From a virus (lineage: Duplodnaviria > Heunggongvirae > Uroviricota > Caudoviricetes), in the IMG/VR virus record IMGVR_UViG_3300031760_000012, positions 1 to 33,386 of that record: DNA of 33,386 bases, one strand, 5' to 3'. A program made the position numbers and the translations under genes. Below, in pieces: positions 4,910-11,873 of this stretch. Under the pieces are notes generated by a model. The model was not told where the DNA came from. It saw nothing but the letters and a program-made list of their open reading frames with translations, and made no database searches. Positions within the stretch are counted from its first letter, which is position 1. Each line of letters starts with the position of its first letter.

Positions 4910-5090
4910 CTGTCACGAATGCCTCAACCGCCACGAGTGCGAACTGTTTAGCCATGTGTGTGAGTGCGAAATCGAATACTGCAGGGATTACGTCCAGTGC
5001 GACGAATACAAGGCGACATTTCGCAGAGAATGGTTCGAGTCCGCGGAGGACGCGTACGGAGAGTACGACCCTGATGGATTTAGTTGGTAA
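4902..5090 (+). CDS. Small Cys-rich hypothetical protein (62 aa)
   Basis: GGAGG RBS; CHEC-x4-C and further Cys; tightly packed between neighbouring genes. Confidence 0.6.
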   Translation: MINCHECLNRHECELFSHVCECEIEYCRDYVQCDEYKATFRREWFESAEDAYGEYDPDGFSW

Positions 5091-5104
5091 AAGGAGGCGA
5101 TATT

Positions 5105-6724
5105 TTGGGGAAGATGACTGTCCAGAATTTTGTCGTGAAGATTCACAGTGACAGACTGGCGAAAAATAAATGGAATCTGGACCTTCCGCTAAGTGAAGCG
5201 CATAAGAATGATGAAGTAGTTGCTTTAGCAAGCAGTCAGGTTCTCAGATGGATCGACGAGTTGAACGGACTGAGCGACATCGAAGACGAAGTAATAACGC
5301 TCAAAAAGCGTTTGAAATTTATCAAAAAGCAAAAGAACTCCGCCGAAAACAAGCGGAAAATCCGCAGAATCTACGAAAGACTTGATGAGCTGCAATTCAA
5401 ACCTGATTACGTAATCATAGTTATGGATAAGATGGCTCACTTCAAAAGAGCCGCGAAAGGATTCACGATCAACGGAATCAAATACGTGCGACTCCTGAGC
5501 TCTGCCGGACAAGTCAAGACCGGAAGCTCTACATATATCAGCGAGAGATTATATGAAGAGATCAATCGGAGAATCGACAACGGCAGAAACAAAGAGATCC
5601 CGCTAGTTCCGGCAAAGCTGGAATCATACCGGGCGCTGACATGCAGCAGCAGTAAGCGCGTGACCACTCCGAGGATCGCCGTTGTGCCAGATTGCGAGAC
5701 GCACTTCAAAGAAGACACGCTATTCCTATCGTACGGCGACGCAGATGAGCCGGTGTCAGAATTCGTCGAGAATGCAGAGCTCAGCCTGACTGAGAGCGAC
5801 GGATACGGACTGATCCTTCCGAGTATGGCGGAACAATGGAGTAAGGACCTTGGGTTAGATTATGTCCCTGGCGCGTTTATCATAAGATCGTCATGGGCGA
5901 AAGGGGCTGTATTCCCGTTCGACTTTATCCGGTTCGCAGATGAGGTTGCAAAAAAAAGAAAGGTCGATGATGTTTGGGGAAACGAGATCGACCTCTCTGA
6001 AGTAGATATAATTCTTACCGCCAGTATGCTCAAGCTGTATGAGTGTTACGACAGCTGTCAACACTATGTCGATTGTTGCGAAGAGAACAAGTATGATTTC
6101 GCTGTTACTAAATGGGCTGATAGCGAGTTAGACCCAGTTAGAGCGACCAATTACCAATTTCTTGCTCCGTACGATTTGTCTGACGACGACATAGACGAGC
6201 TCCTGAGCGATTCGATTAACACTATCAAGGACATTGTATCACAGAATTCTGCAACCGCAAGTCTTTTTCTTCACGGGTCAGGAGTCGCCGAAAGGAATCC
6301 GGTTGATCTCGTCAACGATTTTTCCAAAGGGCTTCTTATCGACAGCAGGCTCCACAACGATCCGTATGTAATGAATCGTATTTATAATCTCGTAAAAAAG
6401 AAGATCCGCGATTTGTCGATCGGTGTGGTCGACGTACCGGGCAACTTTTCCATTATTGGCGGTGACCCGTGGTCACTCATGCAGAACACATTCGGCATGG
6501 AGGTCACAGGGTTGCTCCCACCACACACAATCTACTCTTCCTTCTGGCGGCAGAAAGGTGTCAGCGATGTAGTCGCATTCCGCGCACCAATGTCAACAGC
6601 AGAAAACATCGTCAAGATGCATGTATCCGACAGCGATAAAGCGGCTGACTGGTACTCACATATCAATAACGTAACATTAATGTCGTCGTTTTCAGGCGAG
6701 TGTCATAGCCTGAATGGAGCCGAT
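5105..6724 (+). CDS. yonO: YonO-like single-subunit DNA-dependent RNA polymerase (RdRP-like family), exon 1
   Basis: Large ORF with TESDGYGLI, FRAPMS and ...SLNGAD; splicing to 7010 rebuilds the NGADKDGD metal-binding (DxDGD) motif; AAGGAGG RBS before TTG at 5105 (ATG at 5114 is an alternative start); SPbeta-like position upstream of HU and the packaging genes. Confidence 0.85.
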
Positions 6725-7009
6725 AAACAAACTTGTCCCCCACTCTGGCGACAGGGTGGTGCGCATCTGGTGAACTGAGAAATCTCAGGTGTACAGCATA
6801 ACTGTGCTAACGGTGAAGCACTGTTCAACAGTTAATACCGTGCCAAGGCGGACTGGTGACAGACCGCAAGGTGTAACGACTAGGATGTACCTTCTCACCG
6901 AGAAGATGAGATCCGTACTGTGTCGGTGAAACTCCGGCATGGGAAGTGCCAGACATGTCTCAGACATGATGAGATAGTCTATTCCTTATGGTGACATGAG
7001 GTAGTAAAG
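6725..7009 (+). ncRNA. Group I intron (IA-like, ORF-less, 285 nt) in the RNA polymerase catalytic motif
   Basis: 5' exon ends in U and intron ends in G; P1 GAU/GUC with U.G at the splice site; P10 exon-2 AAG/CUU; P2 with GCGA loop; R element GUAACGACUA and S element GAGAUAGUCU forming P7 GACUA (6878-6882)/UAGUC (6975-6979); P9 with GUGA loop; removal is frame-exact. Confidence 0.92.
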
Positions 7010-8140
7010 AAGGACGGCGACTTAATATTTACGACAAATCATCCTGTGTTGATGCGAAACTTTGTAAAGCGACCGGTTATTGTATGTGAACAGAGACGTG
7101 CAGAAAAGAAAATCGTAACAGAGAAGGATCTTATCCAGTCGAATATAGACGGGTATGGGGATATGATCGGCGTTATAACGAATAGAACTAGCGCCCGCAA
7201 CGTGATTAGATCTAAATTCCCAAAGGGATCTAGGGAATATGAAGAGCTCACCAGACGCACTTTCTTCGGGCAGCTCGCCCAACAGGATGCTATAGATAAG
7301 GCAAAAGGCATAATTACCAAAGATCTTCCGGCGTATTGGCACTCGAGGAAGAAAATTCTCCAGTCTGATATGAGTGAAGAAGAAAAGCAGTTTCAGCTGT
7401 CAATCGTTGCTGACAAAAAAGCGTACTTCCAGAAGTATATCTACAGTAGTCTGAAAAAGAAGTGCCGTGAGTACGACATGAACACAAAGAAGAAGGCGCT
7501 GAGATTGTTTAGGAAAGATGTCGACGAATTAAAGGCGACTCCTGAAGAAGAGCTTTCTCCTGACGAGAAGCAATTCCTGTCTGACTACGAATTGTACAAT
7601 CCAGTAGTTGACGGCACCGATACGGTCAACAGGATATGTCACCGCGTAGAAAGAGAGTTTCAATCATACGTTGTTAGGCGTAAGGCGGAAACTGAGTTCG
7701 ACTACACGATTTTGAAGTCAGATAAAAACTACAAAGGGAATCATCTGCCAGAGATCAGAGAGATCTATATGGAATACAAGATGCGTGCTGAGACGTATGC
7801 AAAGACCGCCAAGAAGAACCGTGTTGATTCTTACGACGCAAACGAACAGTTTACACTTATGCGTGACGATTTTAAGAGGCGGTGCGAAGAGGTCTGCCCT
7901 AACAGCGAAATGCTGTGCGACATCATTATCGATATTACGTACGCAAGAGAACGCAGTCGTCAGTTCGCGTGGGATGTATGCGGAGAACAGATCATTCAGA
8001 ATCTTTTGAAGAAGAACGATTATATGATCAATATGCCAGTCCGCGACGACGAGGGTGACATTACGTTCAAAGGACGCACATACAGAGTTGACCGTGTTCC
8101 ATATATTCAGGAAGAAGAGGAGATTACGTATGCAAATTAA
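7010..8140 (+). CDS. yonO: YonO-like RNA polymerase, exon 2 (spliced product about 916 aa)
   Basis: Frame opens KDGDLIFTTNHPVL upstream of the track ORF 7046..8140; contains IGVITN and QQDAIDKAKG segments. Confidence 0.85.
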   Translation, partial: KDGDLIFTTNHPVLMRNFVKRPVIVCEQRRAEKKIVTEKDLIQSNIDGYGDMIGVITNRTSARNVIRSKFPKGSREYEELTRRTFFGQLAQQDAIDKAKGIITKDLPAYWHSRKKILQSDMSEEEKQFQLSIVADKKAYFQKYIYSSLKKKCREYDMNTKKKALRLFRKDVDELKATPEEELSPDEKQFLSDYELYNPVVDGTDTVNRICHRVEREFQSYVVRRKAETEFDYTILKSDKNYKGNHLPEIREIYMEYKMRAETYAKTAKKNRVDSYDANEQFTLMRDDFKRRCEEVCPNSEMLCDIIIDITYARERSRQFAWDVCGEQIIQNLLKKNDYMINMPVRDDEGDITFKGRTYRVDRVPYIQEEEEITYAN

Positions 8141-8918
8141 CGATATTATATTAAATGAAAGAAACTACATCGAAAAGCTGATCGACGGAGGCGACCTCGG
8201 ACAAAGACCATCCAAAGCCCTTTCTTTGGCGGCAAGGCTCTTTCGTGAAGACGGTTACGATAAAGAGATGCTCCGCCCGCTTCTCGAGGAGTTGATCTTG
8301 AAACACAATCCGAACACATCATTACCTAGATGGAGCCAGACGATCGATTGGGCGATCAGGTACAGCGACAAGAAGCTGATCCAGATCGACAGCATCCCGA
8401 TCACTCAGCTCGAGATCGACATTTGCAAATCCATGGACAGCAATCCAAAGGAGCGTCTTATGTTCACCTTATTCGTCATGGCGAAATTTTATCACATGGC
8501 GAATCCGAAAAATCAGGGCTGGGTCAACATCCCTGACGGGACGCTGTTCAAACTGGCGAACGTCAGTGTCAACGCAAAACGCCAGTCGCTGATGCTGAAT
8601 GAGCTTATGCAGGACGAGTACGTCGAATTCGCGAATACAATCGACAATACATCGATCAAGGTCACATTCATGGATTTCGACTCACCCGCTGTTGTGACAG
8701 TCGACGATCTGCGGAATATCGGAAATCAGTACCGCCGCTTCTGCGGAGAGCCATACATGACATGCGAGAATTGCGGACTGACGGTACGACGTAAGACGAA
8801 TAATCAGAAGTATTGTAAAGAGTGTGCCAAAAAAATAAACATTCAAAAAGCCTCATATTCATCGCAATTACGGAGAGCTGCCTTGATTCAGGAGCATGAA
8901 AGTTCATGCGATGCGTAA
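8130..8918 (+). CDS. Hypothetical protein with C-terminal Zn ribbon, overlapping the RNAP stop
   Basis: GAGGAG RBS, ATG at 8130; CENCG...YCKEC near the C-terminus. Confidence 0.75.
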   Translation: MQINDIILNERNYIEKLIDGGDLGQRPSKALSLAARLFREDGYDKEMLRPLLEELILKHNPNTSLPRWSQTIDWAIRYSDKKLIQIDSIPITQLEIDICKSMDSNPKERLMFTLFVMAKFYHMANPKNQGWVNIPDGTLFKLANVSVNAKRQSLMLNELMQDEYVEFANTIDNTSIKVTFMDFDSPAVVTVDDLRNIGNQYRRFCGEPYMTCENCGLTVRRKTNNQKYCKECAKKINIQKASYSSQLRRAALIQEHESSCDA

Positions 8919-9030
8919 TATATAGCAGAATTTTTGTAGTGGCTAATTGATTGTGAAATGGTTTTGCGGTGAGCACAGCCATTTGTGTCATTTCTGAAGT
9001 TACAATGCTATGGGAAGTAAAGGAGTAAAG

Positions 9031-9333
9031 ATGAAAAGGGAAGCAGTGACGAAGAAAGATCTCGTCAATCGCTTGTCTGAGAAGGGCTACACGAAATATG
9101 CAGCTGGTATCATCTGGGATGATGTTGTCGAAGTGATGAGGGAAGCACTCGTCGAAGGGCACGACATCAAATTCATGGGATTTGGATCGCTCGTTATTCG
9201 TGAGATTAATGAGCGGCCCAGCATCCACCCAGGAACGAAAGAGCGAATTATCATACCGGCGCATAAAACGATTCGGTTCCTTCCGGGCGAGATATTAAAG
9301 TCTGAACTGGCTAACGGTTTCATAAGGGGTTGA
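9031..9333 (+). CDS. hup: HU/IHF-family DNA-binding protein
   Basis: TKKDLV...GHDIKFMGFGSL...RPSIHPGTKERIIIPAHKTIRFLPGEILK matches the HU signature; AAGGAG RBS before 9031. Confidence 0.9.
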   Translation: MKREAVTKKDLVNRLSEKGYTKYAAGIIWDDVVEVMREALVEGHDIKFMGFGSLVIREINERPSIHPGTKERIIIPAHKTIRFLPGEILKSELANGFIRG

Positions 9334-9337
9334 TGCG

Positions 9338-10282
9338 ATGCCGAGGAAAAGCAAAGTACCAGTCCCCGGAGCAACCAAGCCAAAGGCGACGAGACCAGAG
9401 ATTGAATTAAAAATAGAGAAGATGCCGGAAGACAAAATCAAATGTAGCATGTGTGGCAGGGTCCTTAGAACGAAGGGAAATGCCTCGAGCTACTATAAGT
9501 CTAACAGCATTATTCATAAAGGAAACGGCGGGTACATACCCGTCTGTAAGAGCTGCCTCGAAGACTTGTTTTCAGCATATAAGAACGCATTAGGGTCAAC
9601 CCAAAAGGCGATCCAGCGCATATGTATGAAATTCGACGTCTATTGGAATGAGCGCATCTACGAAAGCATTCTCGAGAAGCGCGACACAAGAGGTGGAATG
9701 TTTAAGATCGGCGAATATCTGAAGACAGTCAACTTATACCAGTATCGTGGCAGTACGTACGATACAACACTAGACGAAGAGGCGTCAAGGATACAGACGC
9801 AGATTGACCTCGTAAGAGCTGGCGAAGAGATGACAGAAGATATCGATGTCTCTCCTGAGCAGATTAGAACATGGGGTTCTGGCTTTGATCCTCTGTTCTA
9901 CCGAGAGCTCGACCAGCGCTACGATTACTGGACCGAGGATCTTGACTTCGACAAAGTCGATAAGGCGACAGAGACGCTGATCCGCCAGATATGCATACAG
10001 GAAGTCATCCTGTCTCGCGACGCAGCAGCAGGTCGTCCGATCGACAAGACAGCAAAGATGATCGACTCGCTGCTCGGCAGTTTAAATCTGAAGCCAGTCC
10101 AGAAGCCACAAAAGACAGTGGTCGAAGACGCAATGGATGAAGAAACAGAGATGACTCCGTTCGGGGTGTGGATCCGTAAGATTGAGGATGACCGCCCTAT
10201 TCCGGAGGCAGAAGAACAGTTCGCTGATGTTGACCATTTGAAGGACTACATCCAGACTTGGTTCGTTGGCGGTCTGTGCAAT
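9338..10282 (+). CDS. Putative small terminase subunit (gene directly upstream of TerL), exon 1
   Basis: N-terminal CSMC...CKSC; the frame reads ...TWFVGGLC(N/K) and joins MMHIPN... after intron removal; function inferred from position only. Confidence 0.6.
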
Positions 10283-10709
10283 TATAAAGCTTTAAATATA
10301 GTCTTATCTGACATATATAGCAAAATAGTTGCCGTTCTCAGTAATGAGTTCGTAAAAAATCACATTGAATTGCTGGAAACCCGTAAAGCTGATTTTGCCA
10401 CAGTGTAGTTATGAGATACAAACAAGCACGATGGTTACGAAAGTAGAAAAAATAAAATCAGATTGGACAAGGTTAAATCCTAAATCCTATAACAATCGGC
10501 AATCAGCAGCCAAGCCCTGATGAGGGGAAGGTTCAACGACCATCTCGAAAGAGAGTACACGGTAAGCGATTGATCGTGGAAGTGGTGTGCATCCTACACA
10601 GAGGATGAAGATATGGTCTGCACTGCATGGAAACATGTAGGAGCTGCTACCTCCTAGCAGCCGCACGGGAGTAGCGCCCCGAATATAGAACGAAAGGAGG
10701 TGTAATGAC

Positions 10710-11873
10710 ATGAAGATAATGAAGTCTTTTAAGATCAGGATTTATCCAACAAAAGAACAGGAAGAATTAATCTGGAAACATATACATACATGTAGATTTG
10801 TATGGAATTATATGTTGAATTTACAAGAAGAGCGATATGAATCTGGAAACAATTATTTATCAGCATTTGATATGACGAAACTTTTAACAATATTAAAGAA
10901 TGATGGAGAACATAGCTGGATGTATGATGTAGCGAATACTTCTATGCAGATAGTATGCAGAGATCTAGATAAAGCTTACAAAAATTTTTTTAATAAAGAA
11001 AAAAGACATCCTAGGTTTAAAAGCAAAAAGACATCAAAAGCGTCATATCCTGTTGATTCAAATAGGTTTTATTTTGCAGATAATAAACATTGCCAAATTT
11101 CAGTAGTAGGACGTGTTAAATATAAGACAGATTTTGACTTCCCTGTAGGAAGAAATGCGTGCAAGTTTCGTAATGTGCGGATTCAATATCAACCAGCACG
11201 CAACATATGGATGCTTACATTAACTATGGGTGTCGAAAAACAAGAGCCAGAGTTAACTGATATTCATATGGGGATTGATCTTGGTGTTAAAGAATTAGCA
11301 GTAGTAGCGTTTGGTGATCAAAAGATAGTATTTCATAATATTAACAAGTCACAAAAAGTCATAAGACTTGAAAATAAAATAAAACATGTGCAAAGAAGTA
11401 TATCTCGAAAATACGAGGCTTCTAAGAAACGAACTGGTAATTATGAAAAGACCAATAATATTATTAAAGAAGAGCAGAAGTTAAGAGAGTTATATCACAA
11501 ATTAGCTTGCATTAGAGAAAATTATATACATCAGGTAACAAATAGTTTAATAAAAATGAAACCAGATGTTGTTATAATGGAAGATCTAGATATTCAAAGA
11601 ATGAAAAGAAATAATTATAGAGATATGAGAAAAAGAATATCAGATGCTAAAATGTATGAATTTATAAAAAAAATGAAATACAAATGCGAGTGGAATGGAA
11701 TTCAGTTTGTGCAAGCAGAATGGTATTTTAAATCCAGCAAAACTTGTTCTAACTGCGGAGCTGTTAAGCAGGATTTAAAACGTAGTGATAGAACGTATGT
11801 TTGTCCAAAGTGTGGATTTGTAGAAGATCGTGATTATAACGCTGCTATTAATCTAATGAGATACGTAGCTTAG
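10710..11873 (+). CDS. tnpB: RNA-guided endonuclease TnpB (IS200/IS605-IS607 OrfB family), 387 aa
   Basis: N-terminal KIRIYPTKEQ HTH, RuvC triad GIDLG / MEDL / DRDYNAA all intact, Zn ribbon CSNCG...CPKCG; AGGAGGT RBS; visibly AT-richer than the flanking genes. Confidence 0.95.
   Translation: MKIMKSFKIRIYPTKEQEELIWKHIHTCRFVWNYMLNLQEERYESGNNYLSAFDMTKLLTILKNDGEHSWMYDVANTSMQIVCRDLDKAYKNFFNKEKRHPRFKSKKTSKASYPVDSNRFYFADNKHCQISVVGRVKYKTDFDFPVGRNACKFRNVRIQYQPARNIWMLTLTMGVEKQEPELTDIHMGIDLGVKELAVVAFGDQKIVFHNINKSQKVIRLENKIKHVQRSISRKYEASKKRTGNYEKTNNIIKEEQKLRELYHKLACIRENYIHQVTNSLIKMKPDVVIMEDLDIQRMKRNNYRDMRKRISDAKMYEFIKKMKYKCEWNGIQFVQAEWYFKSSKTCSNCGAVKQDLKRSDRTYVCPKCGFVEDRDYNAAINLMRYVA

Follow-up and report, generated by a model that had tools for sequence, protein, structure and literature searches.

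A group I intron at the catalytic aspartate codons of a YonO-type phage RNA polymerase gene

We analyzed positions 1 to 33,386 of the IMG/VR virus record IMGVR_UViG_3300031760_000012, a Caudoviricetes phage sequence, and refer to this whole stretch of 33,386 nucleotides (nt) as the window. It contains a gene for a YonO-type two-barrel RNA polymerase that is broken at 6725-7009, inside the codons of the Mg-binding aspartate triad (DxDGD), into two separately called open reading frames (ORFs). We hold with high confidence that the intervening sequence is a group I intron within the polymerase gene, and that it is a selfish homing element and not a regulatory device. The features of the locus and of the intron fold, together with those of related introns, are collected in Table 1. 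In motifs, a slash marks the point of insertion.

Table 1. Features of the polymerase locus, helices of the intron and positions of related introns (aa, amino acids)
Feature	Position	Strand	Evidence or remark
Exon 1, YonO-type RNA polymerase gene, 547 codons	5084..6724	+	ORF; tblastn; homologs; junction mapping
Intron, group I, ORF-less, 285 nt	6725..7009	+	RF00028 41.1 bits; RNAalifold; canonical-pair control
Exon 2, 376 codons plus stop, begins KDGDLIFTTN..	7010..8140	+	tblastn; joined translation; YonO alignment
P1	6722-6726 / 6733-6737	+	GAU/AA pairs with internal guide UUGUC; wobble U6724.G6735 at 5' splice site
P2 hairpin, GNRA loop GCGA	6741-6758	+	all 7 pairs covary
P3	UCUGGUG 6766-6772 / 6947-6953	+	covarying variants
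Two extra hairpins between P3 5' strand and J3/4	6775-6788, 6791-6807	+	both stems covary
P4-P5-P6-P6a domain	6810-6872	+	RNAalifold consensus
P4	6810-6815 / 6836-6841	+	
P5	6820-6832	+	L5 loop 6825-6827
P6/P6a	6842-6872	+	
P7	GACUA 6878-6882 / UAGUC 6975-6979	+	pseudoknot with P3
P7.1	6883-6914	+	stem covaries
P7.2	6918-6942	+	stem covaries
P8 hairpin	6954-6968	+	followed by J8/7 and P7 3' strand 6975-6979
P9 hairpin, GNRA loop GUGA	6984-7001	+	3' tail runs to terminal G 7009
Overlapping downstream gene, 262 aa	8130..8918	+	ORF; c-st CST177 counterpart; weak blastp
HU-like gene	9010-9333		downstream of polymerase genes; Pfam Bac_DNA_binding E 3e-20
c-st intron, 317 nt	L001:4187-4503		after DMD/GD; RF00028 25.4 bits; guide UGUCC
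Downstream-site introns	L089:5175-5452, L095:2605-2884, L096:3874-4139, L100:5153-5454		

The interrupted polymerase gene

Exon 1 alone is sufficient to place the gene in its family, with tblastn matches to yonO of phage SPbeta (E 8e-13) and to the corresponding gene of phage c-st (40% identity, E 3e-120). When the two exons are joined in silico, the resulting protein of 923 aa aligns over its residues 125-608 with residues 132-600 of SPbeta YonO (blastp E 3e-23, ∼25% identity), and the alignment passes through the junction. The sequence D547-K-D-G-D551, which exists only after joining, falls residue for residue on D535-N-D-G-D539 of YonO. A Pfam search with both exon products at E 0.01 returned no match; many homologs have a precomputed PF05183 (RdRP) hit, in some cases weak or faint. 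SPbeta YonO is a single-chain DNA-dependent RNA polymerase (Forrest et al. 2017, PMC5467207), which is inactive when the Asp triad is changed to Asn (3D>3N) and which transcribes the SPbeta late operon (PMC5467207); DNA-dependent RNA synthesis and late transcription are known for this YonO only. What the first-pass annotation said of SPbeta YonO, that it uses this motif and transcribes late genes, is in agreement with that work. Its extension to the whole late programme of the phage studied here is not supported; by analogy with SPbeta, the window polymerase may have a late-gene role.

The first-pass annotation had further placed an ORF-less group I intron within 6716-7021, between the first Asp and the Lys of GAD/KDGD, and had stated that neither annotated ORF contains the active site. 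The called ORFs bear this out. The first, 5084..6778 (564 aa), continues past ..HSLNGAD for 17 residues encoded by the intron and stops at a TGA (6776-6778); the second, 7046..8140 (364 aa), has a GTG at 7046 as its called start. The KDGD codons (AAG GAC GGC GAC) occupy 7010-7021, in a frame that is open only from 6995 (H E V V K K D G D L I F..) and whose first start codon is the one at 7046. As no start codon precedes KDGD in this frame, the complete triad is missing from both called ORFs. Exon 1 terminates in ..LNGAD, which includes the first Asp and has U as its last base, and the second and third Asp stand at the start of exon 2. The intron itself holds no ORF longer than 60 aa (the longest are 46 aa on the plus strand and 60 aa on the minus strand), and neither of these has a Pfam match; the description of this copy as ORF-less stands, and no endonuclease ORF was found in it.

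We placed the junction at 6724/7010 because intron-less homologs are contiguous at that codon. In the Enterocloster phage PMBT24 and the Bacillus phage BUCT082, tblastn finds the two halves of the polymerase contiguous, the residues aligned to D(6722-6724) and D(7013-7015) being separated by exactly one codon. Phage records and the genomes of gut Clostridia chosen to represent their species supplied 87 evaluable homologous loci, of which 80 are contiguous (gap 0) at the intron codon; the loci on genome contigs were gathered by an alignment-based scan, a single-protein search of the viral contigs having given one locus. A protein search returned more than 1900 homologs. The full-length homologs (about 885-940 aa) contain NGMDKDGD in 73 cases and NGADKDGD in 11, and many homologs of about 540-557 aa end just past NG.D. 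Removal of the intron restores the reading frame and yields an uninterrupted NGADKDGD, the same as is found in intron-less homologs. We note separately that intron-less BUCT082 (L007:4082-4201) has D-F-D-Y-D in place of the family's D-x-D-G-D, so that the Gly of the triad loop is a Tyr.

The borders can be narrowed to 6725-7009. Exon 1 closes with U6724 at the 5' splice site, and the intron closes with G7009. The intron and exon 2 both begin with AA, and a shift of the borders by 1-2 nt would leave the mRNA identical; the borders given here, 6724/6725 and 7009/7010, were chosen by the group I U/G rule. Alternative 3' splice sites at G7000, G7001 and G7004 were rejected, as they break the frame or add residues that the intron-less homologs all lack.

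Splicing is expected to take the following course. The primary transcript would fold into a P1-P9 core, in which the guide UUGUC would hold U6724 in P1 and a guanosine cofactor would attack after this base. Exon 1, once released, would in turn attack after the terminal G7009, and the ligated mRNA would be translated into the 923-aa polymerase with its Mg-binding triad intact. RNA that remained unspliced would give the 564-aa product, which would have the first Asp only and be unable to be active. As the triad is split between exons, it follows from the sequence that an active polymerase can come only from spliced RNA, and to this extent we agree with the earlier claim that splicing is obligatory. 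The intron is predicted to catalyze its own splicing, and it would persist because the polymerase could survive only by precise splicing or by precise loss.

Fold and Rfam score of the intron

Ten ORF-less introns from the same site, taken from metagenome contigs, were aligned and folded with RNAalifold. The consensus contains 75 pairs, 47 of which show compensatory changes. In a check with 15 sequences, 96.2% of the cells were canonical and 49 of 68 pairs were compensatory, and when the 3' partners were shifted by 1-3 columns as a control, the figures were 31-42% canonical and 14-23 compensatory pairs. The core helices P3-P8, including the P3/P7 pseudoknot, are supported by this covariation. 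P3 occurs as UCUGG/CCAGA, UCGGG/CCCGA, UCAGG/CCUGA and UUCGG/CCGAG. P7 occurs as GACUA/UAGUC or GAUCA/UGAUC, and the strands match in all 11 introns at the window's site (site A) that were scored on both; in a twelfth site-A intron, L095, only the 3' strand was scored, and its 5' strand is GAUCA in the 10-intron alignment. The U.G pair at the splice site is invariant (10/10 aligned introns), the adjoining pair covaries (AU/UA/GU), and a terminal G in the intron together with an exon-final U is seen in all 20 distinct introns found at the two triad sites. The window intron has each helix intact and conforms to the family alignment at every invariant column. In addition, CUU (6732-6734) could pair with the AAG of exon 2 as a P10. 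The RF00028 match, the covarying P1-P9 fold and the U/G borders together confirm the earlier assignment to group I.

The joint presence of P7.1 and P7.2 is the mark of subgroup IA, the usual type in phages. On our own reading of the fold, the window intron would belong to this subgroup, with the extra hairpins between P3 and P4 as an atypical trait. The place of these hairpins (6775-6807) is an unusual one for group I peripheral helices, and they are not known to have a standard name.

The match to RF00028 spans 6731-7001, with E 6e-9 in a search of 801 nt and 2.5e-7 in a search of the whole window on both strands. A default Rfam scan of the window misses the intron at 6725-7009; its sole report is another intron, at 10313-10640. 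The relatives that share the insertion site score 44-49 bits and the c-st intron 25.4 bits, and the lineage as a whole scores consistently below the Rfam threshold. An Rfam scan of seven homologous loci together at E 0.01 gave nothing, and the c-st intron surfaced only in a narrow search. Rfam misaligns the region of the two extra hairpins, which its consensus lacks, and these hairpins probably lower the score. With 6700-7030 as query, blastn detected no similar DNA in any record of the phage collection. We conclude that 6725-7009 is a real group I intron that standard annotation overlooks.

Mobile relatives and distribution

The closest relative, L106, shares the intron and has ∼94% DNA identity in the exons and 95% in the intron core. 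Its intron contains a 722-nt insert located exactly at window position 6824/6825, in loop L5, which encodes a 226-aa protein with NUMOD4 (E 9.5e-16) and HNH_3 (E 1.1e-10) domains. Equivalent L5 ORFs are present in L091 and L097, at the same site, and in L087, whose intron is at the neighbouring site; the inserts, that of L106 included, measure 722-743 nt and the encoded NUMOD4/HNH_3 proteins 226-229 aa. An insert of 721 nt is likewise seen at 6825 in a DNA contig from bovine gut (run X3). Because sister copies carry a NUMOD4/HNH gene in L5, we regard the window copy as an ORF-less allele of a homing intron, for which homing by the HNH enzyme is presumed. Between the window and L106 introns, the P2 stems have diverged through compensatory changes, an argument that selection still acts on the fold.

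The distribution of the intron is patchy. On a tree of exon 1 proteins with 99 rows, the intron state requires at least 11 changes. The window falls within a fully supported clade of 8 rows, all members of which have the site-A intron, and outside this clade intron-bearing genes are sister to intron-less ones. Of four Enterocloster phages whose exon 1 proteins are nearly identical, two carry an intron (CB457P1 and CB473P3) and two are without one (PMBT24 and CB457P2).

This pattern bears on the idea that the intron is kept as a regulatory gate, in which splicing efficiency (responding to Mg2+, guanosine triphosphate (GTP) or translation state) would time the polymerase and hence late transcription. 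The physical split of the triad means that enzyme output must scale with splicing, and the presence of the site-A intron throughout the 8-row clade and the transcription of late genes by YonO in SPbeta also speak for a gate. We nevertheless consider it improbable, because 80 of the 87 homologous loci do without the intron, it can be present or absent in near-identical polymerases, a homing endonuclease is encoded in its sister copies, and the sequence offers no hint of a sensor; the other group I introns of the same genome likewise fit a general invasion better than a dedicated switch. The physiological checkpoint proposed in the first-pass annotation is accordingly not upheld, given that most homologs are intron-less, that the intron state has changed repeatedly on the tree and that the closest relative's intron encodes an HNH protein.

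As for the other introns, the 117-kilobase bovine-gut phage genome, rated complete by CheckV, has four RF00028 matches. The second group I intron of the window, at 10313-10640, scores 84.9 bits, above the Rfam threshold; ORF 9338..10408 extends into this intron, which is followed by an ORF of 387 aa (10710..11873). Outside the window, the phage's own genome has RF00028 matches at G000:C1:87503-87807(-), with 92.7 bits, and at 72548-72810(-), with 21.2 bits. The intron load of this genome is unusually high and fits a general intron invasion. We favour a selfish element because of the patchy distribution, the endonuclease-bearing relatives and this heavy load taken together.

Several points weigh against our interpretation. 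No splice joint, and so no direct evidence of splicing, was seen when one DNA run and three runs that carry a metatranscriptomic label were compared with 5000-8300; the matching contigs from RNA libraries cover only 6310-6712, short of the junction. The P1 helix is short here, with 3 exon pairs (GAU/GUC) and 2 on the intron side. With 41.1 bits, the RF00028 match does not reach the curated gathering threshold (50 bits). Finally, the intron-bearing rows of the tree were picked in part via truncated proteins, and their frequencies are biased; in an unbiased genome sample, 3 of 79 loci have an intron at the triad.

The short P1 and the sub-gathering score, along with the absence of an endonuclease ORF, which would suit a late stage of the homing cycle, might also be taken to indicate a decayed intron that no longer splices, leaving the polymerase gene a pseudogene. 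We judge this very improbable, as the helices are all intact, the family-invariant positions are all kept, the core is 95% identical to that of L106 with compensatory differences in P2, and both exons are open and conserved in a genome that CheckV rates as complete.

Related introns are also found 6 nt downstream, after the second Asp (DxD/GD), in c-st, CB457P1, CB473P3, MT835481, L086 and L087. The introns at this site (L001, L003, L004, L006, L086 and L087) share with the window lineage a UGUCC guide motif and a GGGUA-N5-G end, and both triad sites present (G)GAU to the same guide. Movement of the intron between the registers D/xDGD and DxD/GD is therefore plausible from the sequences. The c-st genes CST179 and CST178 belong to the same family as the window gene and carry a related triad intron, inserted at DMD/GD in c-st and at D/KDGD in the window. 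CST179 is annotated as 'YonO homolog N-ter only' and CST178 as 'hypothetical protein', and the two are separate because the intron is inserted at DxD/GD. The same fragmentation is seen in CB457P1_00001-3 and in metagenome calls of ∼547 aa plus ∼360 aa, so that the prediction that automated annotation would report broken proteins has proved correct. A further group I intron lies ∼95 codons past the triad, after ..QQNAI, in L089, L095, L096 and L100 (32-81 bits); the window gene is contiguous at this site.

Selfishness may be overlaid by competition and immunity, with HNH-bearing copies cutting the intron-less polymerase genes of co-infecting relatives and the ORF-less intron protecting its carrier by disrupting the target site. 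We regard this addition as possible, if doubtful. HNH-bearing and ORF-less alleles coexist in ∼94%-identical bovine-gut phages, the target is an essential and conserved polymerase motif, and a precedent exists in PhiPA3 gp210 versus PhiKZ (PMC11620839); on the other hand, ordinary homing alone would predict that the intron is present, whatever benefit it confers. Somewhat more speculatively, the whole lineage could be an agent of phage-phage competition at active-site codons, with HNH copies that disable rivals and ORF-less copies as immunity alleles. Its guide (G)UCC would dock on GGAU or GAU, so that two registers 6 nt apart would have been colonized, possibly by reverse splicing.

Neighboring genes, precedents and meaning

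The 262-aa gene downstream overlaps the stop of exon 2. Its counterpart in c-st, CST177, is annotated as 'YonO homolog, C-ter only', and blastp weakly matches the 262-aa product to residues 786-820 of YonO (E 0.001). PMBT24 and BUCT082 have the same two-gene layout as the window. The 262-aa product is probably a second polypeptide of the polymerase, which may consist of two chains in the window's clade and of one in SPbeta. SPbeta yonO is an uninterrupted gene for a single chain of 839 aa, whereas the window has an intron, a joined product of 923 aa and the separate 262-aa gene. The order of genes is the same, as yonO is followed by yonN in SPbeta and the polymerase by the HU-like gene in the window.

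With such a gene apparently supplying the C-terminal part of YonO, and with split two-barrel polymerases known in jumbo phages (PMC2919709), one might dispense with an intron and propose a polymerase that is naturally split at the triad into two assembling proteins, with a structured spacer between their genes. We give this next to no credence. The sequence contradicts it: the KDGD codons are upstream of any in-frame start, which makes two of the three Asp residues untranslatable short of some unknown kind of initiation at 6995-7010, and the spacer has a covariation-supported group I fold with exact U/G borders.

Our preferred reading of 6725-7009 as a homing group I intron has parallels. In the Pseudomonas phage PhiPA3, a group I intron with the HNH endonuclease gp210 lies in a beta-subunit RNA polymerase gene (PMC11620839), and gp273/274 of 201phi2-1 is a jumbo-phage polymerase gene with a mobile intron (PMC2919709). 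As in the window, these are phage group I introns adjoining conserved Asp codons of an RNA polymerase gene, with HNH endonucleases in the family. They differ in that the gene encodes a beta-like subunit of the multisubunit jumbo-phage enzyme and not a YonO-type polymerase, and the site is not the DxDGD triad; moreover, the PhiPA3 intron bears its endonuclease gene, the window copy is without one, and competition has been shown there only. Introns in jumbo-phage polymerase subunit genes are thus already published, and the case described here reveals no new mechanism. In whole-word searches of the literature library, no paper connected YonO with a group I intron.

The classic group IA introns of phages include those of T4 td, nrdB and nrdD and of SPbeta bnrdE and bnrdF (among the references given in PMC8270828), as well as the DNA polymerase intron of SPO1/SP82 with its nicking HNH enzyme I-HmuI (a reference given in PMC11620839). 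The window intron resembles the classic IA introns in being small, of the self-splicing type, located in the conserved catalytic region of an essential gene, equipped with P7.1/P7.2, optional in its loop ORF and patchy in its distribution. It differs from them in its two extra hairpins between P3 and P4 and in the location of its relatives' ORF in L5.

Gene calls often break the YonO-type genes in phages and prophages of gut Clostridia, including the botulinum-toxin-converting phage c-st, into two or three 'hypothetical' fragments. Once the intron, whose lineage the default Rfam threshold overlooks, is recognized, a full-length polymerase that includes the catalytic triad is recovered. With this case, the active-site targets of phage homing introns come to include the Mg-binding triad of a two-barrel RNA polymerase. 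Studies of homing, intron loss and phage competition could draw on the two registers and on a pair of naturally occurring alleles, one with the HNH gene and one lacking it, that share ∼94% DNA identity.

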